Of a stretch of DNA of 64,000 bases, positions 1 through 52,440 are shown one piece after another. This DNA is from Amoebophrya sp. A120 (lineage: Eukaryota; Protista; Dinoflagellata). A program made the position numbers and the translations under genes. Each line of letters begins with the position of its first letter. The first letter of the stretch is position 1. The notes under the pieces are model-generated. The model had not been told where the DNA came from. It did no database searches and saw only the letters and a program-made list of their open reading frames with translations. The DNA is taken from assembly GCA_905178155.1 (NCBI GenBank), contig CAJINV010000003.1, forward strand, positions 11,040,339-11,104,338, given 5' to 3'.

Positions 1-66
1 ATACAACCCGGAGGACCAGCGACTTCTCAGCACTGGCGGGAACAAGGAGCAGGAACATCTTGTTGC

Positions 67-19954: not shown

Positions 19955-21585
19955 CTACAGGAGAAGCAGTCCTGATGATGATGTAATCAAAACTGAAAGA
20001 TTGATCGTTTCTGATGTCCCCGAGGTTTGGCTGATTCTATTTTCCACTTTTTCCCCTCGTCGCCCGGTTAAATCTAAATGATGGTGGAACTACCACTGGG
20101 CCACAGGAAAAAAGAGACATACTATACTTATTTTGTTTTTGGTTATTTAGTTTGAGGGACATTACGACGAAACAGAAGACAGAAAGCTTTTTGCTGGCAA
20201 AAGTAGATGACGCAACAAGAGCTCCCGAATCATACATATGGGGAGCACCTTGGGAAAACTTACAACAACTCGACCTGAAAGTAATGCGCGCCGCATGTTC
20301 ATCAGCCTCAGCTTCGAGCTCGTCACTGGAAAAAGGTAGAATACGATCGATCAGTTCCTATAATCGGTTGCCACGAATTGCACTCTTTTGATTACGAAAA
20401 TCAGGAGGACTGCAGTAGATCTCCTTCGCCGTCCTGTTACTTTTCACTTTAGCTCAGTTTTCATGCCTCATAGTATCACTCGGTCATCGTTTTTTTTCAG
20501 CCACCATCCATACCATTTCACTTCGGAAGAAAAAAGGTTGCGCTCTTCGAACTTTTCCTGGTCATCGTGATCACATCTTCCGGTTTTTTGTCGTGATAGG
20601 GGTTACTTGATGCGTTTCGTGGTTAGTCTAGGTAGTAGTTTACCTAGAAGTAGAAGTACAAGCATAAGCAAGCACCAGGGTGTCGTCTTTTTGAGTTTAT
20701 CTGCTCATCTTTTCTTTTCTTTTGTTTGCCTTCAAATTCAGCTTCGTTTTTGAACCATTAAAACCTCGGCACCGAAATCGATGCGTAGGGTCGTGTATCT
20801 GCCAGTTGATGTAGCTTTGAGAATACAGAATGCCTCATGTGAAAAACCTCTCGTCCTCATCCAATGGCGCCACTATCACTTTGGGAGAGTTTTCTACCCT
20901 TGAAGATATACATATTAAGCAGAAGCAAAACCTGCATCAGCATCTCTGGACAAGAAATGAGAATGAGAAACCAGCAAATATCGCCAGAGTTCTAGTCGAC
21001 AGAGATGGAACCACGTCAAGTGACGCAATCAGCTCGTCGTCCTGGTGCGGGGGCTTCATCGATTATATAGACCTGCTGTGCGCCGCTACCAGGCAGTTCA
21101 TCTCAGTCGCAGCATGTAGAGCAACTTGTCATTGCTGGCATCGTTGTGGTCCATGTTTGGGGCCTCACGGCACCGAAAGTCGTTTCTTGCGAGACATCAG
21201 TATCACACACCGCCCATGCGCGCCAGGAGGCGTCGTGAATCCGAAGCGGTTCCTCGTCTTCGATGGGGAGGACGAGGAGCGAAGACACGCGCGACGAAGC
21301 CTGCCGAAACGTCCAGGAGCCGCAATCTGCTCTGCTCCTGCTTCACCTTACGGAGATTACAGAGGAAGGCAATCGCAAAAATCGGCCTCAGTTTACGCAC
21401 TTTGTTCCTCCTCAGGAGTGCCAGAGCATCAACCGCCGTCTATGCAGCTTATTTATATTTGCCCCGATCCGCACTTCGCGAGCCGAAGGGTTGGTGGTAC
21501 GGTAACGGTAACAGTATGTAGCAGGAGATCCCGAATAAAAAAGCGGGAGGTATTAACATCCTTCAGTGCTCCGCACGACCACGAG

Positions 21586-30500: not shown

Positions 30501-30906
30501 TGCCATAGCCATACTTACGAGTGAAGGTAAGGGGGAGTAGTAAGTTGCGCACTCTCATACGAAGCAGCAGCATGCCCGGGATCCTGGCCAGAAGGACTGT
30601 CTCTCCTGTTGGTTACGGGGCCCGAAGTACTCGCAAAACACGGGGTGGATGTGCTGGAAAGCCAAGGGCATGAAGGTGAAAGACCCAAGCCGCTGCTGCG
30701 GGCGGCTGGAAACGCCGTTCTTGCACGCCAACCTTTGGACCCACTACCCGCGCACAGATTGTTTGCTGGCGGAGCATTTGTGCTCCGATTTTCTCTTTGG
30801 CATGTGGCGCCGGAGCCTGAAAACGGGATTACCCAACGTGCAAGAGGCGCAGCGGCCCGACCGCCGGGAGTACGCGGATACGCCACTTAGCAATCTGATC
30901 TACTGA
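21586..30906 (+). CDS. Very large multi-exon type II membrane protein, glycosyltransferase-like; at least 10 IR introns; start uncertain (ORF open from 20830) and structure beyond about 29850 unresolved
   Basis: TM segment YYLSAATVSLVLMLLLIAC; motif YDWFAYTRNDVFWAYPHPPP...IWIPACFDYAGINDRLY resembles uncharacterised algal GT-like proteins. Removing each IR element plus 3 nt keeps the frame open from 21586 to about 29850, except for one unresolved short intron near 26243-26310. Confidence 0.65.
22458..22724. mobile_element. IR intron, family B, inverted relative to the 18944 copy, 267 bp
   Basis: GTATGAATTGCAAAAATGTCTGGGTCTGGAA / TTCCAGACCCAGACATTTTTACAGTTGATAT; TSD CGT; interior is the reverse complement of the 18944 interior. 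Confidence 0.9.
22807..22960. mobile_element. IR intron, family A, inverted relative to the 24126 copy, 154 bp
   Basis: CTATGCAATGCAAAAGTATCGTAC / GTACGATACTTTTGCACAGCATAA; flanks CAG/CAA. Confidence 0.9.
23027..23422. mobile_element. IR intron, 396 bp
   Basis: ATATCCCACAGGAAAGCACACCCATC / GATGGGCGTGCTTTTTTTGGGCATAC; TSD CTG; frame restored (GKHL-KALD). Confidence 0.85.
23483..23795. mobile_element. Degenerate IR intron, 313 bp
   Basis: CTATCCTGAGTGAAAATGTCACC / GGCGACGCCTTTGCACGGGATCT; TSD TCT; frame restored (NDFS-LEWF). Confidence 0.7.
24126..24274. mobile_element. IR intron, family A, 149 bp
   Basis: CTATCCTGTGCAAAACTATCGTAC / GTACGCTACTTTTGCACAGCATAC; TSD CTG; joins ORFs 23850 and 24221 (YTIRL-RPGG). 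Confidence 0.92.
26906..27138. mobile_element. IR intron, 233 bp
   Basis: CTATCCACCGCAAAT / ATTTGTGGTGGATAG; TSD GCG. Confidence 0.88.
27202..27401. mobile_element. Degenerate IR intron, about 200 bp
   Basis: CTATGC..TATCGTACATCGTA / TACGACCACGATA..GAGGATAC; flanks ATG/CTG; an alternative in-frame end at 27302 is possible. Confidence 0.6.
27953..28196. mobile_element. IR intron, family A-like, 244 bp
   Basis: CTATCCTCGATGCAAAAAT / ATAGTTTTGGAATGCATAG; TSD CAC; joins LTRT-GARTK. Confidence 0.8.
28459..28686. mobile_element. IR intron with family A termini, 228 bp
   Basis: CTATCCTGTGCAAAAGTATTGTAT / ATAGAATACTTTTGCACTGCATAC; TSD CTG. Confidence 0.9.
29350..29565. mobile_element. IR intron, 216 bp
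   Basis: CTATCGCAAGAAAAAAGTGTTACAGTTGCAC / GTGTAACTGTAACACTTTTTTCTCGTGATAT; TSD CCG; joins LHP-LYPKYYAQMKE. Confidence 0.9.
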
Positions 30907-33089
30907 AGATGAAGAAATGGAGTAGCTGCAAGACTATACTACCGCTAATGCATTTTTACAGAAGTAGAAACACCAGGAGGAGGCTGCTCCTACGTCTTTT
31001 CGAACATTTTTCTTACTGATCCATCCCATCAAGATCAACAAAGTTTCAATATGGACGAAAATCTGCATCGAAGGCATCTTGCGCATTCATTTTCGAGAGA
31101 ATAAGGAAATATTGCACGAAAAGCGAGCGTAATGTAAATCTCTGAATTCCTTGTACAACGAAAGATACGGGGTATTAGTATTTCTACTACTATTAGGCGT
31201 ATTATTCTTCTACACCATATATTACCCTTACTGGGTAACATCATCATCGTCATCAAATCTCCATCTCGGGAAGCTAACATTTGACCTTTTCTTTTGTTTT
31301 GTCTGCGTGAGGTGATGGATGAACAAGACGCGCAGACGACCACGTACGTTGTGCCTGTGTAAGTAATGCGATAGCACGACTGGACGTGGATGTGATGGAT
31401 GTATCTACATGAAGACCAGCAAAGAACGTAGAGGTTTTCGCTTTCTCTCTCAGAGAGCTACACTGAGTGAACAAAGGTGAGTGAAAGAACTCCTTTGAGT
31501 CCCGTGCGCCAAGCAATCTCTGCCACGGTAACTTTCAGCACCCACGCCTTAGCCTTTCTCTGTGCGTTATTGACCGGCGCCCGCCTGAAGGTGATGGAAG
31601 ATAGGAAGTCCAAACAGCAGAGTCGTGACAACGAGAGCCATTGCGCACTTGAAGAAAATACGGCTGCTATGCAAGTTTTTTCATTTCAAGCGGGCTCATA
31701 TTTGGTGAACAGGGGATCGCGACAGTGGCGAGTAGGTGGTAGGTAGCTAAGTGCGTGTCATAAAGCTCAAGGCTGTTTGGCCTGGCGGCGTCTTTGCATC
31801 ATCTTCAGACAGAGGAACGATAACGCAAGAGGACGTAGACACAGACACTGAATGCAACAGATAAAAATCGAGGGATCGTGCGGCCGGTCATGCGTCTGGA
31901 AAAAGGAGGCACATGCTTCGGGTTCACGTTGCTGCGACTCTGCGGCGCCCATGAAGACAGACAGGAAAGATCAAAGGAGGTAACGAACGCGCAGCCTTCA
32001 CGATCTTGACGGTAGTACTCCTTACGTCGATCACGTTTTTACAGGACCTCCAGAAGCAGGCCTTGCTGCCGGCCGCGCCGCCTCGTCTCTTCTGGACTTG
32101 CACAGTGATTTTTTCTAGTGGATTCAGATTCTCCCGCTGTTCCAGAAGAAGCCGGAGAAAAAATAGTAAAGGCACAGAATAAAGAAGTATGATTGCTGCT
32201 AGGACTAGGAGACCGATTGTAGCACCAGCCAGGAGTTCATCTGCTGCTCTAGTCTGTCTGTTCTACCACTCCTCCGATTTCAGCACGGCTGACGCCGAAG
32301 AATTACAGCGACATGGAGCAACGTCTTCTGTTGTGCCGTCGGGCTTTGCGAAAACGGAGAAAACAGACCTCCCCTACCTGACCTCGTCGTGGGAAGCTAC
32401 ATCGTAAGAGCCAGAGCGTTGTGCTTTGTTCACTATTCTATCGTGTTGATTGTTAAGTTAAAAACTGAAAGTAACTAGTTTTTTTTCTTCTTGTTCGTAT
32501 GTAAGCGGATCCGTCGATGTACATCATGCGCGCCGCGTCTGGGTGAGCTGGTCAGCGGCCGCCCCGACGCTTTCTACTAGGGAGAGTAATCGACGTGTAA
32601 GTCTCGGATTTCACGATGTGTATAATTTGGAAATGATCAGTTTTGTATGCAAAAGGAAGAAGCAGCACGAGCACGACGACTAGCAGTGATCAGAAACAAA
32701 GTAGAGACGAAGAATGAATAAGAACCCACAGGCACTTTCTCAGTACGTAGAAAATGAAAAGCAAGCGGATAAATGAATTGTTGCAGAAGTCGTCGAAGGC
32801 AAAAATAGGCAGATGCAGCCGGATGACTTCTTTTTAGAAGTGCAAAGCCAACTGCTCCATGCTTGATGTACAAGAACAAACTCAAACAACATGATGAGCA
32901 AGAGGCAAGAACTCATAACAATCCCATTCGACAATCAGATCGCATCGAGCTCGCAGCTTTGCCCGACTTCTCGCACTTACAGACCTTGTGTAGCTCGCAC
33001 CTCGTGCTACATCTCGACTCGAATCCACTTCGCATGAGGATTTATTTCGCGATCGCTACTAATATTCGATTTCCATAAAGAGTAAATCT

Positions 33090-33916
33090 GGCTCAAGGAA
33101 GAGCCATTTTGGCTCAAGGAAGAGCCCCCCGGTAGCGCTAGTCTCACATGGGTGCACACATAAGGACGTTGACGAAGAAACACACACACACACACGCAAA
33201 AACACGTCGGCCAAAAACAAAAATAAAATGCGTCCTGCACAAACTGCCCTCACTCACTCACCGGGTGGATGCGCCGCCGAGGTCCGCAGATAGCTTATTG
33301 AGAAAAAGAATAAGACTAGTAATAGCTTAGTAAGAAAGAAAAAGATAGAAGTCGCAAAAACTACTACTAATGTTTTTGTGCTAGAATAGCCGCGCCGCTG
33401 AACAACGGGAGACGGCCTGTCCGGTGAGTGAGTACGCCGCCAACTGCTCGCCGGGGCGCTGCGTGGAAGGGCAGCGTCGCCGCAAGTCGAGCCGGGGAAC
33501 TAGTTTGCTTTCGACTGCCTTTTATTTTTTTTTATGTTCCCCGTCATCTCAATTCCCCCTTAACTTGCCGCCTTACTCTTCACGGACATCTCGTGGATGA
33601 CATCAGCGCGTAGAACGGTTCGAACCAGCCTCGGGCTACAAGGCGACAGGTAAACCATCCCTACGCCCTCCGGTTTGACCTTGACGAAACTGACTACCAA
33701 ACACTCTGGGGATTTCTATCAGCAACAGCATTGCCGACACCTAGGGCCACGCCACCGCGCCTTCCGAGGGTAGATCAGACGGACCACAGAAGGGCGCTGC
33801 GAGGTGGCAACGACATCACTGAAGCGGGAGAGCGGATACAAGGCCTTCGCTCAACTGTGTGGCGTGCGTTGTTTACTAGTCCTAGTTTCATCGAAAATAG
33901 GTTATCTCTCTCTCTC
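33090..33916 (+). mobile_element. Spliced-leader-headed retroposed element, non-coding, 827 bp
   Basis: 18-bp TSD TCCATAAAGAGTAAATCT at 33072-33089 and 33917-33934; 5' end GGCTCAAGGAAGAGCCATTTTGGCTCAAGGAAGAGCC; 3' (TC)n tail. Confidence 0.85.
33102..33118 (+). other. Relict dinoflagellate spliced leader (DinoSL)
   Basis: AGCCATTTTGGCTCAAG matches the 3' 17 nt of DCCGTAGCCATTTTGGCTCAAG; a second partial copy TGGCTCAAG at 33089-33097. Confidence 0.85.
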
Positions 33917-34608
33917 TCCATAAAGAGTAAATCTAAATACGTGTACGGCATAAATATCTTCCATAATCGGGGTCGTTCCGGACTAGTAGCACGTCACTTT
34001 TGCAATCTGAAGGGAGAATAGCAGCCACGAAACGACCGATTACCATTACGAATGATCATTGATACTTTTATTCGCTCCGAAAACACAAATACAGTATTCC
34101 TGTTGAAGAGCTGCAGCCAAGCGGTAGCGTGGGCGGTACTGCACCAGACGCATCAACCCTTTGTGCGAGGGTCTGTGATGGTCGCGACCGCTGTACCGCA
34201 TTCGTTCTCTTCGAAGAAAAAAAGCAATGCACCTTTCGATCACAGCCTCTCTCGACTATTCACCAGGGTACAGGAATATTTTTGATCACGACAGAATCAG
34301 TGGCTCTACTTTTTATTCAAGCAACCACCTATGTAGGTTTTTACTGTGTCTCGGCTTGACGAAGTGCGTTTGTGATAGCATGATTAAGAGTCGCCATCCA
34401 CCAGCGGAATATATATTGTCGCAGCTCTCTTCTGGTTGACTACATCTGCAGTGAAACGCTTCGATGAATTAGATTTGGATCTGGGGGAGCGACATTTGCT
34501 ATACCATGAAAATTCGATAAATTTTTGTCTCCAACATAATATTACACATACTCTCATGTTGTCATCCTACTAGCCTCGCTTCCGTCATCTCTCGGAGCTA
34601 CGCTTTTT

Positions 34609-35082
34609 GTGAGGACCGCAGGACGAGACGCCGGCGTTGAAAATACGGGGCAAATACCCCTTGATCTCTCGGCGTCGCTTCAGCAAGTTGAATCGGCACC
34701 ATCCGCCGGTGGTGAACTTCCTGCCTCGGAGGAAGAGGGCGTAGCGCAGCGCACAAGCGTTGGGAGCCTTGGGAAAAATCCTGGCAAACGTGCCGGTGCT
34801 GAGCACGAACAAGAAGTAGAAACGCAGCGGTCGTCTGCAGACGGAGTAGACCAGCAAGAAAAACCTCCTGAACAAGACCTCGTTTACCTGTTGGCGCAAT
34901 TGACGCTCGCGCATAAGATCCCTGCAAGCGACCCAATCGCCATGAAGCTCCTACACACAATAAGGCAGAGTGGCACAACGGGGGCTGCCGCAGCGACTAC
35001 CGATGTCGGTTGGTTTGGATGGCTGTTTCACAGCATCTTCAGCCTCTCGCAGACCCTGATCCTCATCCTGGGGCTTATCGGT
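34609..35082 (+). CDS. Probable exon of a hypothetical membrane protein
   Basis: Coding-like ORF ending in the hydrophobic stretch WFGWLFHSIFSLSQTLILILGLIG followed by GT; start and other exons not found. Confidence 0.35.
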
Positions 35083-37015
35083 ACTTCTCAAGTTATTTGC
35101 AGCTGCTACTTTTTACCTCTTTGTCTACATATTTATCACCTTTACCTCTTGATGTTGATGTTCCAGTTCAGCAGTACATCTCTTATTTCTGACCCACGAC
35201 AGATCGTGAACTTCTACTGCTATGCTTTTGTAGTATTGATGTCGACTGTCGCTTTGGCGTCATACATTAGTCCTCTTAGTACAACTACAACCATTTGTCA
35301 TGCAATTCTTCAATTCCATATAAACACTATACACACATACCGCGTCCGACCACTGTGATCTACTCAAGCTTCATTGATGTTTTTGTTTGCTTTATTTGCA
35401 TTGCAATAAACTGTAAACACACATACCACAGTCGTCGCCCTGATAGTATGGAGGCAATGTGGTGAGAGCCTGCAGAATTTCTGGAATTACAAAGTCCTTG
35501 CGTCCTTCGGTATCCGAAAGCAGCCGGCATACAGTCCGCAGGAGCTTGCAGCCATGTGGGACGACGACGACGGCCTCTAGCGGCATTTTTATTTTCCTTT
35601 GGTTTTTCTCCTGGAGTGCGTGTGCATGTGCACGGACGAATAAGCAGCAAATGGAAGTAGACAAAATCAAAAAGTAGATCTGGCGCGGATTACTGTGGTT
35701 CCTGTGGACACATCAGCGAAGACCTTCTTCAACAACAGAAGAGCATCGCCGCAGCCAACAACTATCTATATCGTAGTTGTGGTGATCGCGTGGATTGTTC
35801 TGTTCATCATGATGTCGTCGCTGCTTAATGGCGGGTACCCGGATCGTAGATCTGCGAGAGCGGACGGAGTTTCGTGGATGTGGTGCCCACATTAGCACTA
35901 TCGTCACTTCCTCGCCGGCATTATGGTATCACGTACAACGAGAACAAGTACCAGGACCACACTAGCTGCGAAGCATTGGCCCCAAGTAACACGTTCCACT
36001 TCCACAATCATGACCGGTCTTGGCCGCGCCGGTAGTTGCTACTTAGCGTTGGGCTTATGTGCTCCGTCCGCTTCTTCCTCCTCGCGCTCGATTTTGGGCG
36101 CTTGTAATTCACCACCCCCTGCCCTATTTGTATTTCTTGATATTGTACAGACAGCTGCATTTTTAACTACACCTATAAACCACGAAGAGAAAGGAACGCC
36201 CGAGGGTGCGCATGCATTACGCGCAACTTCTGACAGGCCGCACACAGAACCAGGCAAAGAACACCAACACCTCACTTGTGCAATAGTAGAGATCCAAAGC
36301 GACAGAAGGAGTAGCAGAAGCAAGCAGGACCAGATGATCTTCGTTGATGCAATAAACGAGAATATAGATCTGAAGGTGGTCATCAAGTTCATGCTAGTGC
36401 TAGTAACACGCGTACTCCTGACGAATTTGCCTTTTGTGAAATGAAACGAAAGCACAAAAATGAAGCATCAAACAAACACGGAGAGGCTCCCCGTGCTTCT
36501 GCGCGGCCAGGCGGCCCGCTTTGCATTTATTCTGTCCCGGTGTTCCACAGGCTGAAGATGACCCCTCGTGTCTTTATTCTCTTTTGTAGTGTGATTGATT
36601 GAAGAGTGAAGCAAGTACCAAGACGCTGAGTACTGGGCAATTATGAGCATGAGAGTAATGACTAAGGCGAAACAAGCAATGTAGATCCAGGCAGCTGTAT
36701 TGCGTCCTACAGTGTTCTTTGTGCTACGATCGAACCGGAACTTCAACAGGAGAAGCAGCTTGATGATAAAAAGCTAAAGCGCACCACCACCACGCAGTAC
36801 GCATTTTTAATTTAAACGACGGAAGACTATGTACAGTCCTTAATTGAATGCGGGGGCAAAAATTCTTTTTCCAAGGATGATCGATGGCTTGGCCATCGAC
36901 CACGACGGGCTGAAGCTGTAAGATCAACAACGCAGCGCCCTATCCACCCGTCGTCCCCTGCTTCGGTCGGTTGCTGGTCTTTGCTGCAGAACCAGGAGCA
37001 GATAATATCGTCAAG

Positions 37016-40000
37016 ATGGCGGCAAGTAGCAGCGCAGACGCGTTTTCTGCACCAGATCCGCCTGCGGCCGCCACGGCGCCGACCTTTGCGGAAAAAGAAG
37101 CGGACTTTGAGAGTATGGTCTCCGATCTGCGGGGAGTCTTCATGGACTGGCTCCGGCGCTCAGAGAGGGAAATGGCAGATGCACGAGCGGAGCTAGCCGC
37201 CGCCAAAAAGGCCTTCGAGGACGAAAAAGCAAAGGTGTGGAAAGAGTTCATGAAAGAGAAGCAGGCAGAGTAATATTGACCTTTTTTTTTGTGACTTTTC
37301 CTTGGTCGTCTTCGTCATCATTGATCTGAGAATATGACGGGCTGCATAGCACTAGTACTAGAAGCATCTGGACGGATGATCCGGATCCGCTGCGTCACCG
37401 GCATGTATGTGTTTCACATGCGCCGCGTAATGTAGGATGACCACCATGTTTCTTCTTTGTTTGTTCCGGATCGATCCTGCTTCGTTGCCTATATCTATAC
37501 CTTCTACGGTGCTATGTCGATACTAGGATATGCTGTATCCAAGAGCTACACCTCTCGTCACAACATATGTCGTGTGTACTTCTAGGTACGAGAAGATACA
37601 AGGCGAGCGGCGAAAGAACGAGGCAGAGATAGCAGCTGCGATCAAGCAGGTGGCGGTAGAACGCGAGGACGCGCGGTCCAAGATTGCCGAGGAACGGGCG
37701 AAATTTGAAGAAGAGAAAGAGAAGAGCAAACGACGACTCGCCTTGGACCGTGAACGGCTCAGACAAGAAGTTGAAACCTTCGAAGAGGAGAAAGAAAGGA
37801 TAAAAGACCAGGTTTGATGCAATGGTGCAGCTATTCATCTTTTTGTCACGACTTTGTTCCGATGGACAAAAGAGAAACAATTCATTGACTCTAAGTAGAA
37901 GTAAGGCTTGTAGTCACATCTTCAGTGATGTTGCTCAGCACCACGAACTACATATAATCCTTGCCGCGAGTGCATCGTTACCTTCTAAGGGATGGAGCTT
38001 GCGCAAAAAGTTGTATGTATGAGTCCCAAAAGAATAAGAAACATCAAAAATTCTGGAGGCTCTCGCGTCTGAAGAAATAGTAGACCTCAACGTGGGCGGT
38101 GTTACGTTCGAAACTTCAAAGGCGACTCTCTGTAAGCAGCCCGGATCCTACCTGGAGGCGCTGCTATCGGGAAGAGAGCACGTCGGCCGCGACAGAAATG
38201 GCAGAATTTTCATAGACCGCGACTCCGAATCGTAAAAAATTTTTTGCTCTTTCGTGTTCTTTCTTTTTGGTTTGGCTCTGTCACTAAGAAGTCAAAAAAT
38301 GATATTATATTGGTCATTTTCAGCCACAGCGTGGCTCATCATGGAAATATTGCTTCGTCATCTTCTTTGTCCTGTCTACATACATTATTGCTTTAGATAA
38401 TATGTGCTGCTTTATACTGGGTAATTGAGAGTCAAGAATTACTACTCATTCACGAAAAAGAGCATGTAAAAACGAACAAGGTTCCGCACAATTTTGAATT
38501 ACCTCCGTGGTTCAAGTGACGCTGCCGTGCCGCTGCCCAGCTCTGCTCAAGAATCCGAATCTCTTGTGAAGGAATCAAATTACTACGGGGTCAAATTTTT
38601 CCCATACCCGCTCGTCTTCGCAGCCGGAGGGCACAACGGCTATGAACATTTGTCCGCTATGGAGGTTCTGGACGTCGGGAATCAGTGCTGGAGGCCTTGC
38701 AGATCAATGCGCACAGAAAGAACCTACTTCGCGGTAATGAAACTAGTACAGTGGACCACGACCATCTTTAATAGGACAACATGAACATCATTGATGCAGT
38801 TTTCTTTTTTCCTTCACTCAACCACAATTGCACAATTGGCGACTTGGACTTGCGCGGGATTCCACCTCCAGCCAGGATTTGTATCTACAACTATAAGAAG
38901 TGTGACTTCACTTTGAAACTAGTTCTAGTTCTGCGATCCTGGTTTTCATCGTCGCCTTGAGCTTAACTCGCTTCTAACACGGCTGCAGGCATCGACGCTT
39001 TCGGCAAAGCTGTACCTCATGGGTGGCCAGAACTTGGGTATGACCCTTAAAAATATGTCTGGGTCGGAAACGCAACGAAACAGAAAGTGTGGCTGGTCCT
39101 GTTGCTGCCTCGTATTGAAGCTGCATCGATATCATTGAAAAGTTACTGATCTTTGTGTCTTCAGCCTTTTGCCATCAGCATCACGAGCTGTTCTTCTTCT
39201 CAAACAAGTAGACGGACCCAGACGTATTTGAAAAAATGCATAGTGGAATACAAGGCACTAAACGAGATGGAAGTTTACGACTGTCTCCGTGACGCCTGGA
39301 TGGCGGGTCCGCCTCTGAATTTTCCAAGAAGAAATGTTACCAAAGTGAATCAGAAGATAGGACGTAGTTACTCACCGGTTGATGAAGATGTGCATGTGCT
39401 CGAGAGCCCTTTCGAATTAACCGTAAGTGTACGATGTGTAAATAAGGAAGTAAAACGACCATTGCTATTCACAACTCCGCAGTGGTACTCTCGTCGACCT
39501 TCCCATCGCAGGGAAACTTGAACTTCTACGCAGGAAGACCTCAAAAAAAGAATTGAACACACACGAGTCTTCACAGTGAAGATGTTCACGCTCCATAAGT
39601 GGCTACTCGTAGATTCGTTCCTTGAGCGCGGCCTGAAAGGATTCACATCTTCGTGGAACAGCAAACGTTCTTCTCCCGGTGCCTCTCCATAAGCGCCTGC
39701 TCGGAACAAGTGGACGGAAAAGTGTACATTATGGGGGGTTTTGACGGATCGCAAATTCTCTCTCACGTGGAGTCTTACGACCCACGCATGAAGTCTTGGA
39801 TGGAAAACGCGGGAATGACCACACCACGCTCCTCGGCTATGTCCTGTGTGCATGGCGGCAAGATCTTCGTGCTCGGAGGTAGCCTACCTTGGTTCTTGTA
39901 GTTCCGCTTGTTGCACATCAATATCTGACAATTGTACTGATTCCACGGCGGGCCACCGCTTAGATTTCAATAGTCAGAGTGGTCTCCGCCAGAAGTAGAA

Positions 40001-41258
40001 ATGACAGACTTTGATTTTACGTGGTGTCTTCTACTTCTCCACTTCATGTTGAACTCCACTATTTGTAACTTATTGTCGCTCTTTAACTTTGATCAAAAAC
40101 TCCGATCTCCATCATCGACCGCCGGATAAATATCTGGAGAAATGGAACTCCCACAGGTACAAGCGGCAAGAGGCTCAAAACAGTCGAGTTTTTCGAGCCG
40201 AAAATGAATCGATGGAGCCCATTTGACGTGGACATGATTGACGTTCGAAGTGCTGGGCAGGCGCTGACCTGCCTGTCACAAATATACGCACTTGGCGGCA
40301 CAGACAACCAACAAACAATACACTACTCAGTACTTCTTTTCTCCTACTGTAGGTCGATAATTCAAGAATCTGATTGCATGGTTGCGCGAGGCTGTCTTTT
40401 ACAACTTCTGAGCCGGTTGGGTAGTTGCCTTGCGATTTAGCACGCAGCCCATAATTCAATTTAGTTTCTTTCGTGATCGCATGACACCGAACAAGACATT
40501 TGCTTTTATCCTCATCAGGTGGAATCATTGGACCAGGAGACCGTGACGTGGATGTATAACAAGAGCATGCAAGTCAGTCGGATGGATTTTGCAGCTACGG
40601 TGATTTTACGCGGAGCAAAAGTAAGCTACCCCCAGGTGTAATCTTCAATTTAAGCATGATCGCAAAAGTGCAGCACTGGGGGTGATGCTTACATACACGA
40701 ACACGGCAGTGCACCGCGAGCGCTTGAGCCTGAAGTTTGTTTCAATTATGAAAATGATGTGAGCACCTGCGGGATGGTTTTTCACGGGATACATTTCCGA
40801 TTCCATCATGGTCGGCGGCGGGCAAAGTGGCGACATTCTCGCGAGCACAGAGTATCTTCTTATCATTTTGTTTACCATCAATGATCTTCCGCTTTTATCC
40901 TTGTCTCTTCTTCAGAGAGTATCTTCCGTTTTTATCTTTGTCTCTTCTTCATCTTCCTTGGTGTCGCTTTTGATAAGCGGAAAAAACAAGGGCAGAATTA
41001 AAGCTGGTCCTAGTTGTTATATTGAAGCTGTCTGCTTTGCAAAGTAGGCGCCAGGCTACCTTCTGTGCTACGCAGGCCAAGGCCAACGACATCAACCTTG
41101 AAAAATCAATCTGTTGCTGTACTAAATTTTGAATAAAGGATCTGAAGAACATCTTTTCTGAAAACAGGTTCTACCGGCCCGAGCTCGACACGTGGCAAGT
41201 CGGTCCGAGTATGCTCACGCCGCGTTACGGGCATCAGTACCTAACTGTGTCTCTGTAG
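37016..41258 (+). CDS. K13: Kelch13 orthologue (coiled coil, BTB/POZ, 6-blade kelch propeller). 11 exons: 37016-37269, 37586-37811, 38059-38231, 38481-38733, 38989-39037, 39247-39336, 39696-39878, 40157-40329, 40519-40605, 40796-40851, 41168-41258
   Basis: Colinear with Plasmodium K13 as recalled: ADFESMVSDLR, DLNVGG..FETS..LLSGR.HV.RD..GRIFIDRDSE.FR.ILNYLR, YGVKFFPYPLVF..GG, YKAL.E.EVYD.LRD.W, PRSSAM, WQVGPSML.PRYGH. 7 GT-AG introns and 3 IR introns. Confidence 0.95.
39038..39243. mobile_element. IR intron, family B-like, in K13, 206 bp
   Basis: GTATG..AATATGTCTGGGTC / GACCCAGACGTATT..GCATAG; TSD TGG. Confidence 0.85.
39337..39692. mobile_element. Degenerate IR intron in K13
   Basis: TTACC...CCATAA termini; flanks ATG/GCG; the nearest GT-AG pair breaks the frame; removal gives PRRN-ACSEQVDGKVY, aligning with PRRNNCGVTSNGRIY. 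Confidence 0.7.
40606..40792. mobile_element. IR intron in K13, 187 bp
   Basis: TTACGCGGAGCAAAA / TTTTTCACGGGATAC; TSD ATT; restores FAATVI-SDSIMVGG. Confidence 0.85.
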
Positions 41259-42761
41259 GTGTTGCGGTCAAATAGAGGCGCGTGTCTTGTCATGCAGGAG
41301 GTACACTAGGAAAAGGGACTGGCAATAGCTGCATCTTCACATTGGAGGTTCTCTTCACTGTACTTTTCTCTAAATCTGACACCGATATGATAAATTAAAC
41401 AAGCTCTCCGCCAGGAGCATCTTTGCGGTTCATCACCTCAGAGATGAAGACCAAAAAATCGAGATTATCGACATGTTCGAACAAGCTTTAGTTAATATAT
41501 ACTCAATGTCAACAACCTCATGCGTTTTTAACGTTAAATCACAATGACTAAAACTACACGACGGCGAGCCACGCGTTGTGGACAAAGGCGTGCTAGCACT
41601 TGTTGTCCGTCTTTGCCTGATATGTAGTAGAACGCTTGGAATGCCGCGTCGTGGTGTTCATTCTGTTTTTTTGCAACTGTAGGATTCTGCTGATCATGGC
41701 TATCTAGCGAGCCATGTCCACCCGCGTCGCGCGAAAGCGAAAATGCGTGGCCGTGAAGAGCCGATTGCTAGTTTATGTCTAACAACATTTGGTCGTGCAG
41801 GAGGAGGAGGAAGTGATTTTTTTGCAAGTAGTAGAAGCACAAATTGATGTACGTAGTGACGCTGCAGAGAAAAAAAGATGTTGTCGAAGAACCGGCATCC
41901 TTCCATGCCAAACCAAGCTTCTCTCCGCGTCGCTTGAGACACGCACGATATGGCTACGCGGCGGCGCGTGTTCTTGTTCTACATTTGTTACTAGAACTGG
42001 ACGCTGAGTTCAGATCGGAGGAAGCGAAAGCAATGAATATTTCGTGGTGTTGTGCTGGTTGGTGTACCTGTACGGTCACTGAGTACAATTTTCAGGTGGT
42101 CTACTGCTTGCGGCGAGCCCCGATGTAGATGTTGAAGGATTTTCGTTGAGGATCACGTCGCGCGATCTACCTTTTCCGTGGCAATGACATGATTAAAGAA
42201 TAATACTCGACGGATTTTTCAGCTGTTATGCTTGTGTCGTTCTCTTGATGCAGATCCGCGGCTTGTTGTTGGTGCAAGGATCAGTATATATCAGGGTCCT
42301 GTTGCAATGCGGTTGTGATTGTTTCACTCTAGTTGTAGTACGATCTTCGTTTCATCAATTAGGATTAGCTCAATGCGCCGGTTGCGGTGCTGTGTCTGTG
42401 CAAGCATGCAAAGATCCTGTGACGGCCACGGCCAGCACATTGCGAGACTGCATCGATATACACGGTTCCTCGTTCCTCGTTGTAATCCCACTCAGAATTA
42501 TTTGTGGTGCTGTGACGGTGTTGTACCAAAGTTTCGGCATTGGTCGACAATGACGCCAATTAGTGGGAGGAGGCCCTGGCCCGCTCCCCTCGCTTTCAGA
42601 AACATTTCCGATGAATCCAAATTACTAGAACGACAACATTACGACCAAACGAATCCAATCCTTCATTCTAGTAGTCGGTTGCGGTACAACCTACGCAAAC
42701 ATTTTAATCTTCTGGCACCTCTGAGATAGAAGTAGAAAATAAATTATTTTCCAAAGCAATT

Positions 42762-44306
42762 ATGTCGGTCCAGAGCATGCTGTCAGCTTCCACGACGCAG
42801 TATGCGTTCCACAGTACTCCTGCCCCGCTAACCGCAGGAATCCCTGATCCTGCAACGGTGCAGACACAAAAAGAAGCATATTTGAACATGCTCGAGCAGC
42901 AAATGAAACAGGGAGTCACTGCATTGGACGCCCAGCTCAAGCACCAAAAGGAGTATCTCGCAGCGCAGGCAGAACAGCAGAAGAAACAGTATTTTTTCTT
43001 TTGCTGTTGTATTTTGGGATACGATAGGCTCTTGTATAGATACTGAAAACCGCGCTTGAGCTGGAGGCAAGGAAAAAAAGAGTGGAAAAAGATATAAGAA
43101 GTTGTGACACCAAATCACTGTGACTGTGAGGACGCAACGGCAAGAGAGCGGCGCCTCAACGGAAGTCGATATTAAGGGTTTATGTCTAACGGACCAAAAT
43201 GTGTTTTGTATGGAGGTTGAGTAAAAAGTCTTCCATCCCTGCTCTCGTTTTTGGTAACTTATGTTTGATGTCTATGTCCTCTTGCTAATCTCTCCAGTCA
43301 TCCTTTTTCCCAACACCTGCTAGATTCGCGATGCAAGTGGATCTGGAAACCAACCAGCAGCAGATGGCACTTCAACAACAGTACCAGGAACAGAAGATGA
43401 CGCTGCAAAATCAAGCGGGAACACAAAAATCGCAGCTCGAGCAACAGAGCATGCAACTCATACTCGACTACTTACGAAGCGCAAACAATGCCTGTGGTAG
43501 TCGTAGTTCCTTATGCCGAAAACGGCATGTTTGTATTTCTGATGTTAAGGAGGTATTTATGATATGAATGCTTCGGAAGAAAATATGCGACAAAGGAAAG
43601 CATGATATATCTACAATGAAGGAACAGTAACAGACGTAGTAGAAGTGGAGCAGCGATGAATAATTTTGCCATTGAAACATAAATCTGAATCTGGCAACTA
43701 CAAGTAGGACTGCGTTGCTGCAGCGAGCAAATGTCGTAACGACTTCCAAACAGAGAAGCACTTTCAGCAGTTTACATTTTCATTTTCTGCCGTACAGGTC
43801 ATTTGTAATTGCATAGTCCACTCAGAAGAAAGCCGAGGAGGAAATGCAGAAGCAGCAATACGACATGGAGAGACAGCAACAGGAGGTACCAGCTTAATAT
43901 TTCCAAAGCTCCTCACGCGCTTTACTTATCTATGTGCGGTGGTGATCATCTCACTGCTCCTGTAAATTTCTGCTTACCAGGCACAAGTGAATGCGGCAAG
44001 CCATAGAAAGAACAACAGGGACAGAAACAGGCCGTTAGTGAATATGATTTTCTAAAATTTAAGTACGCACCACATGATCTTGATCATCTTGTTTGACTGG
44101 AACTAGATACAACAGTCGCTTCATGATCATGGGATGTTCATGCTGTCCAACTCCAAAAACAGATGCAGATGCGGTTGCAGTCTGAAATGGCAAGGTTGCA
44201 AACGAGCTCTCAGTTCTCCTCTGGTATGCAGCCACCCAACATTCTCGCGACCTACAGTGGCACCGCTCCTACACTGCAACACCCTGCCGCATCAGTGTCG
44301 GGCTGA
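42762..44306 (+). CDS. Glutamine-rich coiled-coil protein of a type common in dinoflagellates; exons 42762-42988, 43324-43471, 43820-43885, 44163-44306
   Basis: GIPDPATVQTQKEAYLNMLEQQMKQG...QAEQQKKQF.MQVD..LEQQSMQLILDYTQKKAEEEM; two GT-AG introns and one IR-type intron give a continuous frame. Confidence 0.8.
43472..43816. mobile_element. Degenerate IR intron, 345 bp
   Basis: TTACGAAGCGCAAA / TTTGTAATTGCATAG; flanks TAC/TCC. Confidence 0.7.
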
Positions 44307-45769
44307 AATTCAAATTGAGCGAAAGTCGTGCTTTTGGTTGTAGATTAAATATGTAGCTGTGCCTTTCACTCTCTCTCTCTCTCTCTCTCTCACAAAAGTT
44401 TCCCGCTTCGATGAAAACGATAACGCACGTTCTTTGAGCTTCTTCATCTCAGGAGGTATGGCATTTTCTTTCCCGTGGCGTGTTGCCATTTTGCCGCTCG
44501 CCGCGCACCAAAAGTTACTCAACCTTCCAAGAAGATTGACCATGATTCACAAACAAGGACCTCCTTTTCTCTTTTTGCCATTTTTGGCCAAGAAACATAG
44601 TACTGGATACAACGACACACGTCATCAAACATCTTCAGTGCCAATTTATCATGTGCGATCTGTAGTATTGTTCGTACTCCTTTTGAAGCTGTAACGTCAA
44701 GAATTTCATCAGACTTTACGCCCGCCCCGCAGGCGCGCTTTTCTTATTTTCCAACAGGGATCAACACGCGGAGGATAAGTGTCATAGGTGATGTCAGGAT
44801 CCAACCTTGAGTCATGTGCTCAGCTCATGGATATGAGGCACGTTGTCGCTCTCTCGTCACTCAGCACGTGAACCACAAGATGTGACGACAGCTTGTTCTA
44901 CGAGCAATGGCATCAACATGATCGTTTACGTTTTGTTCCTGGCCTATCGCTGCCAGTGGGCCAAGTTTATAATACTTTGAGGAAAAAAAGGAAAACTTCA
45001 CTATTGTTGTGCGTCGAGTGCATTTTCATTTTGTTCTTTTTTCACCTCATCGCGTCGTGCGAAGATCAACAAATTCAAGGCGGAGAAGCTCTCGAAGTGG
45101 ATCAAGTTAGTCGACGCAGTTTGTTTATTTGTACAACACTACTTCTACTGATGGCTATCGATGTAATGTTGGCTCTACTTTCCGATCCTCTTCCTGTATC
45201 TGTTTGCGCAATCGCTGTTCCGCCCAGGCCCTTTGCTTCGGCATGGTTTATTTTATTTTGTTTCAAAAAGTCTCCACTGGTAGATTTAGTACGAAAGGTT
45301 TGCAGTTTTCTGTTTGAAATACAAATAACTGCGCCTGAAGATTCCTTATTGCGCTGTTCTTGCTTTAGTGTCCGCATGCATGGATGTTAAGACTACGATG
45401 ATATCCATATCGGAATAAAAAACATCGGAACCGGAAGGCGTGTAAAGAGACTGAATAGACGAACAAGACCTATCAGTCGTGTGCTTGCTCCTACGAATTG
45501 ATTGCTCCCATTTGCTTAACAATCGAAGTACGATTTGGTGTAATTTCTACCCTGCGACGCGAAAGCACGTCGCACCTTACAACCGATTTTATTATTTTGG
45601 GAGATTGCCGAAGAATAAGAAGATCAAGATCATCATCGTCAAGCTCAAGATCGAAGAAAATAATAGATAGCTCTCCTCTGAACATAGGCTGAGATATTTG
45701 AGTGGTGCATTGGACCCGGCACCCTCGTGTATCGCACTGTTCTTGGTGTTTCATCTTATTTCTGTCGAC

Positions 45770-46340
45770 GTATATTAGAGTGTTTTACAAGACAGATGAC
45801 AGATGAAACAGATGACACAGATGATACAGATGACCAACTTTGCGAGTTTTGTTGCGGGGCTTTTTTTGGTCATCTGTGTTCACAGATGACGAGCATTCGA
45901 ACAGCGAAAACCGGAGCCCCAAAATCAAAAACAAAACAAAAAAGAGGGTCGGCTCTCCAGTGTCGCCGAGAAAGTGCGCCTTTCACGGTGCGAGCAGATG
46001 GAGTGGCAGCACCTCCATAGGCCCCACCCTGTGGGCCGATGCGCCAGCATTCCTAATAGCAAAGGCACGAGCACGACGGTGCTGCGCATATACGCCGATA
46101 GCTAGGCGGTGCTGTGCACTACACCTTCCCGCCTCGAACAGATTCAGGCAAAAAATACTTAGGGTAGACCGACGACGTTCCGCCTCATTCCAAATCTCTC
46201 GCTCCGCCCAAGAAATGGCGAGTGAAGTGCGGGCTGTCATCTGTCATCTGTGCCTTTTCTTCGGCTTCCCGTCGAACTTTCGTCATCTGTGTCATCTGTT
46301 CATCTGTACCTTCGTCATCTGTGCCAGCCCCCCCTTATAC
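45770..46340. mobile_element. MITE-like element with inverted subterminal ACAGATGA(C) arrays
   Basis: About 5 ACAGATGA copies at 45792-45835 and several (G)TCATCTGT copies at 46236-46322; termini GTATA...TATAC; flanks GAC/AAC. Confidence 0.65.
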
Positions 46341-46427
46341 AACAGCCTAGTATATGTACATCATCGTATCTGCTGCCTGTGTCTGGTTCAATTGCGTTTT
46401 GGAAAATCTTCTTGAAGACACAAATAA

Positions 46428-48341
46428 ATGTCGTTGCATTTCGCCGGGGCTGCGTCACCACGACCGACCCCTCCTGGGCGACGAGCGACGATCTCGGAAG
46501 AGGGAAATCGTAACGAATCGAAGCAAAGGCAAGTACGTTACGCAAAAAAAAATCTGCGTCGCAGCAGCAAATTACCCGGCATTTCGTTTGCAGGAGGACC
46601 CGCGGGAGTGCTAGTGCTAGCCATAGCTGCGCCAGTGTTCATCTATGGTTTTCGGTCGAGTCGACCTCGTCCCGTTTCGCCCTCTCCTGCGGAAGAATCT
46701 TGTTGCAACGACCGGCGACTTGAACATGACGAGAAACAACAAGCTGCGCCAGACGATGTTTATTCCAACAAGCTAAAGATGAACATCGAGGAGCTACTGA
46801 CCCCAAAACGAACAACAAGGTCCACCCCCGTGTTTGCGGAACACGACAGCCGGGATGATCATGATCATGTCAACCCTGCTCAATACCGCGACTGGTTTCT
46901 ATCCAGTGATAACAAGACAGAAGGAGAAGCATGGCTGCAACACGACCCGACGTCGAGTACAAAAACAGAAGGCGAAGGAGCGAAAGACAAGGACCACGAC
47001 GAGCAAGCGGGTGGCTACTACATTAGACGCAACGCCACCGACCTCCAAGATGCGGACTTCGACCTCAAGGCGCGTCGGACGCTAGGGGGTTGCACCACTG
47101 CGACGCCTGCCTCGTCTGATTTCTGTTTTATATCGGAGGACGCGACCACCACCCGCGAGGGCGAGGTCGTGGGCGATCGCGACGATGCTGCAGCAGCACG
47201 AAGAGTCTTTTCTGGGTTGCCCATCACTGCAGGATCATCCTCTCTGGTGGAGAGCACTTCCTCGCCGTCCTGTCAAAAACAAGAAGACCCGCGCAGGGAA
47301 TATTTGCTGGAAAAGCATCCGGAGCATGATCGTCTACTTGAGCACCAGACTACTTTTCTCCCGCCCGGTGGGAGTACCGGGGACGGACATGACACATCCA
47401 TTACGCACCAGCTGCGGGAGGCTTCTCACATTGCACAACTCCCTGATGCGGAGCGCCAACAGCAGTGCGAGCAGACCGGAGAGGCACAGGGCCCTGCGTA
47501 CAGCTTTCCACGAGTTGCAGCACAACTGGCGGACCACGAGCCTCTCATCCTAGAAAAAAAACCGGCAGCAAACGAGGATCCGCATTTGCCAGACCTCGCC
47601 CCCTACTACTTGCAGCCCAAAGGGAAAGTAAGCTCGTATGCCTCCGCGCTGGGGCAACATAGTGGCTCCTCCAGCAGCTCTGCCACTGCCAGAATGTTCA
47701 AGTTGACAAACTACCCGGTAGAGCCGCCATACCCGTCATACGACCACCGGCCGATAGACGCGTCAACATCTCTTCATCCGCGGTTGCAGCCTACTGCTGG
47801 TGGCAGCATTGCGAGAAATTCGTCGTCCTTGTCATTTTCCCTGTCCTCGGAGGACCACAGAGATCACCAGCACACAGATGACAACCACGACGGGGACCAT
47901 GTCCATGATTTGCTCCTTCCACCACAAAGCTCGTCCTCACCACTGCGCTCTGATTTGCTCCTTCGCGGTTCTTCGTGTCAAAGGGCGCGAACCGTGGGGA
48001 CAAGCGAGGACAAAAAGCCCGACGCACCGGAGTTGCGCAAGGAAGCACGTGGAGGCGGGACAATCTCCGCGCAAGATGACGCGGGCGGTGACGAGCGGCG
48101 TAGTTACGAGGGGGGCTACAGACCTTACACACCTCACGGAGGGGAGGACGCCGGAAGGGCATACACAGACAAGAGCGACGATGTTGATGAAGAACTTCAA
48201 TTTATTCTCGACAGCAGCCGATCGCGTAATACTAGTCGGAGCAGTCGCGATACGTCCGGAAACTCGGTGGCAGCTTTGTTCGATATCGATTGCCCGCACT
48301 ATGGGACGTGCTTCAGGCGAGAGATCGTCGCGTCAGCTTGA
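46428..48341 (+). CDS. Hypothetical low-complexity protein with an N-terminal hydrophobic segment
   Basis: 637-aa ORF; GVLVLAIAAPVFIYGF. Confidence 0.55.
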   Translation: MSLHFAGAASPRPTPPGRRATISEEGNRNESKQRQVRYAKKNLRRSSKLPGISFAGGPAGVLVLAIAAPVFIYGFRSSRPRPVSPSPAEESCCNDRRLEHDEKQQAAPDDVYSNKLKMNIEELLTPKRTTRSTPVFAEHDSRDDHDHVNPAQYRDWFLSSDNKTEGEAWLQHDPTSSTKTEGEGAKDKDHDEQAGGYYIRRNATDLQDADFDLKARRTLGGCTTATPASSDFCFISEDATTTREGEVVGDRDDAAAARRVFSGLPITAGSSSLVESTSSPSCQKQEDPRREYLLEKHPEHDRLLEHQTTFLPPGGSTGDGHDTSITHQLREASHIAQLPDAERQQQCEQTGEAQGPAYSFPRVAAQLADHEPLILEKKPAANEDPHLPDLAPYYLQPKGKVSSYASALGQHSGSSSSSATARMFKLTNYPVEPPYPSYDHRPIDASTSLHPRLQPTAGGSIARNSSSLSFSLSSEDHRDHQHTDDNHDGDHVHDLLLPPQSSSSPLRSDLLLRGSSCQRARTVGTSEDKKPDAPELRKEARGGGTISAQDDAGGDERRSYEGGYRPYTPHGGEDAGRAYTDKSDDVDEELQFILDSSRSRNTSRSSRDTSGNSVAALFDIDCPHYGTCFRREIVASA

Positions 48342-50089: not shown

Positions 50090-52440
50090 TAGTCAGGCCG
50101 TTCCGGTTCCAGCCCGGCAGGCTGAGAAGGCCACAGACACTGGGGTCGAGCTGGCCAGGAGCAGCACCACAGAGACCGTAGAAGACGCACCCCGCCGCAC
50201 CACGACGGCGGCCCCCATGCATCCAGGCAAAGAACACGGGGGCAGCGGCAGAAGGTGCAGGACGACAGTAGGGGGGGCGCCCGTAGGTAGCGCCACGGCA
50301 ATGGCCAGCAGATGCACGCCCGCGCGCCCCCTTTGGCGAACGCCCCACGACGCGAAGAAGCCCCGCGGCGGAAGCCAAGGTGGCGGGCGCTTGCGAAAGT
50401 CCGGCCGCCCAGGCCCCTGCCCACCCGGAAGGCGTGGCGGCCGGGGAGGCAGGTGCCGCATTGGCCAAAGGAAGACGCCACATAGATCGTCGGGGGCGGG
50501 CGCGCCCGGGCGGGCCACGACGGCTGCCGCCACTGCCACACAGATCCGGCGGCGGGACAGCGGGAGAAAGGGCAGGGTGCAGAGGGGGGGTGTCCGTAGT
50601 TGCGCGTGTAATGCCGGGGCATGCGCCCCCGCCGCCTCGGCGTACGCCGGCCCCGCGGCGTCAAAGGCCGTGGGGACGATCATTGTTGAGCGGCCGCCCG
50701 GCCGCTTAGCCGCATACCCTGCCGGAGTGAAGGCCGCAGCGGCAGGGGCCGACTGTGCCGGAAGCGACGGCGAGGCGCATCCCGACATGCAACGCTGGCC
50801 GCTGCCACACAGACTGACATGGACGCACGCGCCCAAGCACTAGGCGCGCCGGCGAAGCGAAGGAAGGTCCGCGGAAAAGGCGCCCCCCCTGCTCTCGGGC
50901 CTTTTTTCCGCTCTCGGTCGGGCTGGGCTTTTTGCTTTCGGGCTGGACTGGCGCTTTCGGGCCTGGCTTTTGCTTTCGGGCCCGCCTGGTCTCCGCTTTC
51001 GGGCTTGGCCCCTGCTTTCGGGTTGCGCCTTCGCCTTCGCGCGTGGCGTTTCCGCTGCCTGCGCTTCCGGGCTCGGCTTTCGCATCCGGGCCCGGCTTCC
51101 GCTTTCGGCCTTGGCCCTGTTAGCTTCTTTCGCTTGTCGGCTTGGCTTTATTTCGCTCTCGGGCCCTATGGGAGCGTCAGGATCGAAATCGACAAAATCG
51201 AAAAAAAATTCCGGCAGTCCTTTGAGGGGGCCTCCAGGGCAACCCCTCGGGGACCCCTTTCGATTCTGACACACTCAAGCATACCGTGGTGGCTAGCTCG
51301 AAAAGGGCCGAGTGCGTCAGAATCGAAATGCGAAACACCAGCCCCCCTCCAGGGGGTCCCGGGATTTTTTTTCGATTTTAAGAATTTCGATCCTGACGCC
51401 TCCATAGGCCCGGCTTGTGTCTCCGGCCTTGGCTTTCGCTTCCGGGCTTGGCCTTCGCTATCGGGTTTGGCCCCCATCTGCTTTCTCGGACGGACGGGCG
51501 CCGCCTTTTTTCGCTGTCGGGCCTGGCGCCCGCTTTCGGGCTGGGTTTTGTTTCGCGTTCGTGTTTTGCCTTGCTTCGCTTTCGGGCTCGGCCTTCGCTT
51601 TCGCGCCCAGCCCTCGTTTTCGGGCTTGGCTGCCACTTACTTTTGGGCTTGGCTTCGCCTTCGGGCCTAGCTTCCACTGCCGGGCGTGGCTCTCGCTCTC
51701 CTCCGCTCTGGCGCTTGTGTTTCGGTCTCGGAGCTGGCTTTCACTGCCGGGCCGCTTTGATTTCGCAGCCGGGCCAGGCTTTCGCTTTCGGGCCGTCTCC
51801 TTGGCTTTCGCTTCGGGCCCCGCGTGGCTTCCCTTCGTTTTCGGGGCCGGCCTTCGCTGTCAGGCTCGCACGCTCGGCGAGTGTTAAGCAAGCCCCGGGC
51901 CCTGGGGTCTTGGGGCCGCAAGATTGAAGCACGAAAGCGCGAAGGGGCGACGCCCGAAAGTTTGACGCGCAAACACATCGGGCTCGCAGGCCGGAAAGAG
52001 GTCCGTCCCGAAGGCGCTCGAAAGCTCGAAAGAAGTCCCGAAAGGCCGAAAGAAGGCCCGGAGGCAGGGAGGCCCGCAATCCGCCGCGGCGGTTTTGGAA
52101 GCCCACACACAGCCTGGCTGTGGGCTTCCAAAGCCGCCGCGCCTGAATATCTCGAATCTGAATACCCCGAGTCTGAATCTCTCAAATCTGAATCTTTCAA
52201 ATCTGAATCTCTCAAATCGGAATCTCGCAAATCCGAATCTCTCAAATCTAAAATATCTCGAGACTCGAGATTCGAGCTTCGAGATTTGAGGTTTGAGATT
52301 CCAGATCTGAGATTCCAGATCCGAGATTCCAGATTTGAGATTCCAGATTCGAGATTCCAGATTTGAGATTCCAGATCTGAGATTCCAGATCTGAGATTCC
52401 AAGTCTGTTTTTTCGTTTCTCAAATATCGGTTAATTTGAG
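50090..52440. repeat. GC-rich composite repeat or probable transposon body with internal tandem arrays
   Basis: Abrupt GC shift; degenerate CTTTCGGGC arrays at 50890-51860; 15-bp TCTGAATCTCTCAAA array at about 52143-52255; 14-bp GAGATTCCAGAT(C/T)T array at about 52270-52400. Confidence 0.7.
51166..51407. mobile_element. MITE with introner-type termini, outside any gene, 242 bp
   Basis: CTATGGGAGCGTCAGGATCGAAAT..AAAATCGAAAAAAAATTCCGG / CCGGGATTTTTTTTCGATTTT..ATTTCGATCCTGACGCCTCCATAG; TSD GCC. Confidence 0.88.

Follow-up and report, generated by a model that had tools for sequence, protein, structure and literature searches.

A single cut register relative to short TAY and ATA motifs for non-GT-AG introns of Amoebophrya sp. 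A120

Known introners and comparable intron classes

More than 60% of the 66,565 RNA-supported introns of the dinoflagellate Amoebophrya sp. A120 are non-canonical, and the genome paper leaves open how they are bordered and removed (PMC7789003, Farhat et al. 2021). Its elements have 3–5 nucleotide (nt) repeats of varied position, and their borders are called "variable" or "unknown". Here, we compare these introners with introns in a 64,000-nt stretch of the same genome (hereafter the window; contig CAJINV010000003.1, positions 11,040,339 to 11,104,338 of the forward strand), which is rich in elements with TAT...ATA inverted repeats. The window elements are the known A120 introners. Besides the shared host, they yield transcript-backed non-GT-AG introns (13 joints), have a 3–5 nt boundary repeat, and form repeated families. 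An 8–20 nt terminal inverted repeat starting with TAT is clear in young copies, and the terminal duplex is significant in 8 of the 13 introns. The published elements likewise have TAT-N7-AAA inverted repeats and direct repeats, given as 5 bp in the S19 legend, and lack fixed dinucleotides. Their splice sites, however, are described as variable or unknown, whereas the window introns share a single -1/+4 register (one base before TAY, four after ATA) and include an unambiguous case without a repeat. This motif-and-spacer splice code is the new part. In the literature we found no mention of a fixed register in Amoebophrya, and figures of the genome paper or subscription papers (e.g., Roy et al. 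2023) could hold one.

The closest working analogue is the class of nonconventional introns in Euglena, with the code 5'-N3CDG...CH'G N5-6|R (PMC12501133). In both, complementary terminal triplets lie at set distances from the cuts, end letters are free, an origin from miniature inverted-repeat transposable elements is likely, and GT-AG introns coexist. The Euglena triplets are CAG/CTG with spacers of 3 and 5–6, whereas those of the window are TAY/ATA with spacers of 1 and 4; a purine follows the Euglena intron, whereas exons here start with C, T, or A. Where Euglena introns have CDG at +4..6, CH'G at -8..-6, and the purine, the window introns have TAY at +2..4 and ATA at -7..-5. The Euglena lineage is unrelated to A120, and its introns work alike, but those of A120 are not members of that class.

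Introns of Fritillaria borealis also combine terminal inverted repeats and target-site duplications (TSDs) with a lack of GT-AG, in a genome that keeps U2-type components (10.1101/2025.08.15.670264; PMC11282704). They differ in preferring AG-AC and AG-AT ends and in having kept U1, whereas end letters here are free and set by the target site. Introners of Micromonas and other algae that co-opt a TSD are alike in that the transposon and one TSD-length are removed and the mRNA is unchanged (PMC9860276, PMC11282704). Unlike those of A120, they carry or recruit GT/GC and AG and need particular targets; AG-G targets are not enriched here (4 of 182 strand-pooled readings of element copies versus about 3 expected from base counts). 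Among DNA transposons, both TDD-4 and TDD-5 of the Ginger2/Tdd group make 5-bp TSDs, and the group's TGT termini are one transition apart from the TAT found here, a likeness that serves as a lead only (PMC2836005).

Register of the cuts in transcript joints

All 13 transcript joints that cannot be read as GT-AG fit introns of the form N-TAY...ATA-NNNN, a single -1/+4 register in which we have high confidence. Joints were sought in contigs of runs X1–X4, which belong to one study with two samples and whose RNA status is guessed, and of run X7. Contigs of X1 and X2 were mapped on 28001–48000, where 15 of 19 joints were listed, 10 of them readable as GT-AG and 5 not. Contigs of X2, X3, X4, and X7 were mapped on 16901–30600, where 15 of 34 joints were listed; 7 of these 15 lie inside or between element copies with a short side of 20–27 letters and were dropped as repeat cross-mappings before the count. 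The 23 joints used comprise 10 that are readable as GT-AG and 13 that are not. Two raw-read runs (X9, X10) gave two mapped reads each and carry no weight either way. None of the 13 introns has a GT-AG register within the slide of its joint, so the class lacks the GT/GC-AG ends of U2-type introns.

The offset (1,4) is compatible with 13 of 13 joints and the runner-up offset with 10. ATA at -7..-5 is found in all 13 non-GT-AG introns versus none of the 10 GT-AG introns (Fisher p = 9e-7). T at +2, A at +3, A at -7, T at -6, and A at -5 are invariant, +4 is T in nine introns and C in four, and the first and last letters are free, with nine forms of final dinucleotide among the 13. Anchored on TAY and ATA, the first five joints have a single register in common, in which four upstream bases are kept. 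The rule and four named predictions were written down after these five and before the second mapping. All eight held-out joints fit, including three of the four named predictions (the fourth, 22807, is not among the joints listed), and three of the eight lie outside the picks of the motif scan. If registers were uniform, the chance that all eight admit register 4 would be 0.015.

Mismatches between the two copies of the 5-nt direct repeat locate the cuts within it. In the 10 informative joints, all 17 mismatches at bases 1–4 keep the upstream copy and all seven at base 5 keep the downstream copy; tabulated against the TAT/ATA motif, 24 of 24 mismatched bases in contig joints fall in one register. 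A reading of the sequence alone had proposed that the downstream copy is intronic, which is correct for bases 1–4, whereas base 5 of the exon comes from the downstream copy and upstream base 5 is intronic. The intronic copy presumably drifts, to judge from the fall of repeat identity with stem decay. The register restores the original coding sequence at the insertion.

The two protein-coding cases on which the sequence-only reading relied are borne out. In a BTB-Kelch gene, ATG (39334–39336) stands before TTA, and TAA (39690–39692) before GCG (39693–39695); joint 39335>39695 in the RNA-like contigs of X1 and X2 (slide 1 letter) gives Asn-Ala. From protein alone this case is weak, since keeping 1, 2, or 3 upstream bases gives Asn each time, and RNA decides. 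The same joint rules out an intron that ends in AG and gives AAC. In a Q-rich gene, joint 43470>43819 (X2 contig, slide 1) gives D-Y-T-Q-K-K, keeping Tyr (TAC over TCC). Three other mismatched pairs came without coordinates and were assigned by motif. GGA/GGC would correspond to element 18945, where RNA of X2, X3, and X4 keeps GGA, and ATG/CTG to 27202–27404, where Met-Val of the deposited model P0003 fits, in the model only; CAG/CAA was assigned to 22807 and is synonymous.

Joint 18149>18662 is unambiguous (slide 0) and recurs in three runs (X2, X3, X4) with contiguous contig coordinates. Its intron (18150–18661; TT..GC) has no direct repeat, the flanks GTTGT/CAGCA sharing 0 of 5 TSD matches, and fits -1/+4 exactly; the register is therefore fixed without a repeat. 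A GT..AG register of the same length (512 nt; 18149–18660), one base upstream, goes unused. A fixed, staggered geometry independent of the direct repeat had been anticipated from sequence, and in the frame used there (stem end one base outside TA) the cuts are 0 and +3 in 13 of 13.

Cut positions could instead vary within the direct repeat, or be guided by it, and the rule be a small-sample effect. In this sense, the Fig. 3 legend of the genome paper says that splice-site positions vary with respect to the hairpin, the S23 legend puts a distance of 1–5 nt between splice sites and inverted repeats (PMC7789003), and the 13 joints come from contigs that show major forms only. Slide in a 5-nt repeat would by itself give an apparent 1–5 nt spread, however, and the agreement of 24 of 24 mismatched bases, the 0.015 chance for the held-out joints, and the repeat-free intron at 18150 make such variation improbable.

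A further concern is artefacts, whether from reverse transcriptase jumping over hairpins, from mis-assembly, or from editing after canonical splicing. Template switching is known to arise at hairpins with direct repeats, several joints have a short side of about 29 letters, and the RNA label of the runs is guessed. Against this, the joints restore open frames through three genes and the deposited model agrees with them, depth at the BTB-Kelch joint is 152–240 versus 14 for the unspliced contig, and contigs with non-GT-AG joints also lose GT-AG introns. The intron at 18150, seen in three runs, lacks both a repeat and a strong stem, and none of the non-GT-AG joints is seen in run X7. We regard an origin of the joints as artefacts as very improbable.

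Several observations nevertheless weigh against a universal register. Contigs hide minor registers, 23 joint rows are outside the listed set, all joint-bearing contigs are from one study (two samples) and are RNA only by guess, and the 13 joints are all in genes of the + strand. A model intron at 23483–23798 ends in ATC rather than ATA. A TAT..ATA candidate at 44457–44786, which lies past the stop codon of the Q-rich gene and has 3 of 5 repeat matches, is unspliced in an X2 contig and may reflect motifs paired by chance or an intron left unspliced. The eight introns of the P0003 model without contig joints are all element-type and of rule length; the model was possibly built on the same RNA as the contigs and was excluded as independent evidence.

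Direct repeats, stems, and the machinery of removal

The length of the TSD was determined from copies in one other assembly, where 119 loci were found with a family pattern; 124 matches gave 98 full elements, 91 of them with TA ends. The TSD is perfect at 5 nt in 76 of the 91 copies and at 3, 4, and 6 nt in 1, 1, and 0. A 3-nt TSD, as assumed from sequence, is thus rejected (among lengths 1–8, only 5 stands out), and the triplet then noticed is bases 2–4 of the 5-nt repeat. The outer stem pair proposed with it, joining TSD base 5 to the first base of the downstream copy, has complementary bases in just 26 of 91 copies, which is about chance. Young window elements have five identical bases on either side. 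In the 13 window introns, TSD matches range from 0 to 5 of 5, and identity drops with stem decay (rho 0.57, p 0.04). Mismatches in external copies (9 in 69) are too few for use. Variant ends occur in 10 of the 98 external copies, two of them ATG with apparently coding flanks. All 80 listed of the 119 loci (L001–L119) are from one assembly in a metagenome collection; their flanks match the window only at other elements, and several copies have other elements within 300 nt.

Window elements form the families 18944/22458 and 17705/22807/24126, and the introns of the BTB-Kelch and Q-rich genes named above have no relative among window elements. Element 18944 is opposite in orientation to 22458, and 22807 to 17705 and 24126, where 22458 and 22807 are introns in the deposited model only. 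Oriented by internal sequence, external copies split 13 v 14 in 27 confident calls from 69 usable loci, a weak result in that a signal-blind classifier would give the same (strand validation 71 of 81). No transposase was identified for the elements, and no search for autonomous copies was made.

Against shuffles, the terminal duplex is at or above the 95th percentile for 8 of 13 non-GT-AG introns and for 0 of 10 GT-AG controls. In the other five, including the BTB-Kelch intron of the sequence-only reading, it is no better than shuffles, and a strong stem is therefore dispensable. When whole introns are folded, the probability of the TA:TA pair does not exceed 0.01 in 6 of 13, and the C at +4 in four of 13 introns has no compensating G at -7. 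While the terminal inverted repeat is clear in young copies, it has decayed to TAC..ATA in the BTB-Kelch intron and four others, non-canonical introns that probably stem from introners. Because the register holds in the five introns without a better-than-shuffled duplex and in the six with TA:TA at 0.01 or less, the cuts look anchored on the short TAY and ATA motifs rather than on a long helix, and the idea that excision is measured from the stem is not upheld. On the other side, three of the five weak-stem introns keep 7–14 expected end-to-end pairs in other registers, a significant terminal duplex does occur in eight introns and in no GT-AG intron, and the folding predictions leave proteins out of account.

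We lean toward an explanation in which TAT...ATA transposons insert with a 5-nt TSD and are cut out by a modified U2-type spliceosome that counts from TAY and ATA instead of reading GT and AG. The 5' site would be a relaxed form of the GTA donor of this genome, with TA kept at +2,+3 and +1 free, and the distance from ATA would define the 3' site. The terminal inverted repeat may help young copies to bring their ends together and could then decay. Because both arms carry the motifs, removal could work for elements of either orientation and at any target sequence, and such a spliceosome would remove the insertions without protein change. Any register that restores the exon removes the element and five bases, and there are six such registers; the one used has TA at +2,+3, the position it occupies in the GTA donors of 9 of the 10 GT-AG introns here. 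A spliceosome is favored because of this match to the donor position, the decay of the stem, and the precedent in Fritillaria, where non-canonical transposon introns need the U2 spliceosome (10.1101/2025.08.15.670264). The same source reports that lower U6 N6-methyladenosine favors U at +4, which we treat as a lead only. A120 has nearly the full set of spliceosome proteins, and no U1 was found (PMC7789003).

Some features fit a modified spliceosome poorly. Near the 3' motif, the 13 introns show no evident consensus resembling a branch point. Free letters at +1, -1, and -2 together are a large change for a spliceosome. No hybrids were seen: every ATA-N4 end is accompanied by TAY, and none of the 10 GT-AG introns has ATA-N4. 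The authors of the Euglena study take the scarcity of hybrids to indicate separate machines (PMC12501133).

A separate, non-spliceosomal machine could produce the same register by binding the paired ends (TA:TA and stem), making a staggered cut, and ligating the exons. This is the version of the sequence-only reading and is much like the model proposed for Euglena, where a complementary triplet pair at fixed spacers is required (PMC12501133). TAY and ATA are complementary and always together (13 of 13 versus 0 of 10 GT-AG introns), the terminal duplex is significant in eight introns, and both orientations appear usable. We keep such a machine as a tentative alternative because hybrids are absent, end letters are free, the available GT-AG register is skipped at 18150–18661, and U1 was not found in A120 (PMC7789003). 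It is possible, if somewhat doubtful, that this second, dedicated machine reads TAY/ATA, is blind to GT/AG, and makes a 1+4 stagger equal to the 5-nt TSD, its code being convergent with that of Euglena. Yet the register is unchanged in the 5 of 13 introns whose stem is gone, the change from T to C at +4 is uncompensated in four of four (weak, p ~0.13), the ATC model intron breaks the outermost pair, and a register that matches the GTA donor position would be a 1-in-6 chance.

Genes and elements of the window and the reach of one code

The BTB-Kelch (K13-like) gene (37016–41261; + strand, as for all genes and introns below; end approximate) has 11 exons and encodes 544 aa when spliced. Its product has BTB_2 and Kelch_1 domains (Pfam), and a PDB search names Kelch proteins; "K13" is the label of the sequence-only reading. 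Seven of its introns are GT-AG and three are N-TAY..ATA-N4. These are 39038–39246 (GT..GG; TSD TTGGG/GTGGA, base 1 upstream and base 5 downstream; X1, X2), 39337–39695 (TT..CG; TSD AATGT/AGCGC, three or four upstream bases kept in RNA; stem decayed), and 40606–40795 (TT..TT; TSD GATTT/CATTT; contig joint). The Q-rich gene (42762–44307; four exons, ~194 aa; end approximate) has two GT-AG introns and the non-canonical intron 43472–43819 (TT..CC; TSD CTACT/GTCCA, three or four upstream bases kept; X2 only), and its exon 1 has no Pfam match. The intron at 45772–46343 (AT..AC; TSD ACGTA/CAACA, four or five kept; X1 only) is the longest that conforms to the rule (572 nt), lies in apparently non-coding surroundings, and contains ACAGATG-like units in an inverted array.

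In an MFS transporter gene, a young introner with a contig joint (17705–17861) has a perfect 5-nt TSD, so its register is uninformative. Another young introner, that of GGA/GGC (18944–19219), has the TSD GGGAC/GGGCC, with base 4 upstream in its contig joint. The P0003 gene (21586–30903; 14 exons, 1964 aa) was identified by its exon 27405–27950 (182 aa), which is 100% identical to a deposited 1964-aa Amoebophrya sp. A120 protein. Its 13 introns are all element-type, five in RNA contigs and eight in the model only. The former are 27953–28199 (TSD GCACC/GCACA, base 5 downstream; X2), the young introners 28459–28689 (TSD TCTGC/CCTGT, base 1 upstream and base 5 downstream; predicted beforehand) and 29350–29568 (perfect TSD; contig joint), and the introners 29799–30189 (TSD AGCGC/AACGT, base 2 upstream and base 5 downstream; predicted beforehand) and 30268–30563 (GT..AA; perfect TSD; contig joint). 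The latter include the ATG/CTG intron 27202–27404 (TSD CATGC/CCTGG; Met-Val corresponds to 2–4 bases kept) and 23483–23798, which ends in ATC-N4, its terminal A now C. The contrast between P0003, with 13 of 13 element-type introns, and the conserved BTB-Kelch gene, with 7 of 10 GT-AG, agrees with the published bias of such introns to less conserved genes.

Five of the 10 GT-AG introns (35081, 40330, 40852, 42989, 43886) start with GTAY, the same start that an element has after G, and may represent old elements that GT-AG splicing has taken over. Where a 3.5-kb open exon ends, two direct copies of ~45 nt (at 13963 and 15247) bracket ~1.28 kb with several AAAAACACTATCAC-type inverted repeats; this region (13963–15291) could be a nested element, or else a large intron at which the exon end has been duplicated. 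A young element with a perfect 5-nt TSD (51167–51406) lies within GC-rich repetitive DNA (50–52.4 kb), which also has short tandem units at ~52140–52400. A strong inverted repeat at 54426–54785 has just 2 of 5 TSD matches and is flanked by open frames on both strands. The 52.4–57.2 kb region yielded no informative intron in a minus-strand gene, and Rfam gave no RNA family in the window.

A single register means one code (N|TAY...ATA-N4|) for splice sites that seem diverse. Such a code would define exon borders by the tens of thousands and would explain how transposons can invade coding sequence harmlessly at any target. If a second machine does the work, no copy would affect the protein, whatever its target or orientation. 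The register also supplies exact substrates and predictions that bear on whether a spliceosome can give up reading GT-AG altogether or a second splicing machine exists.

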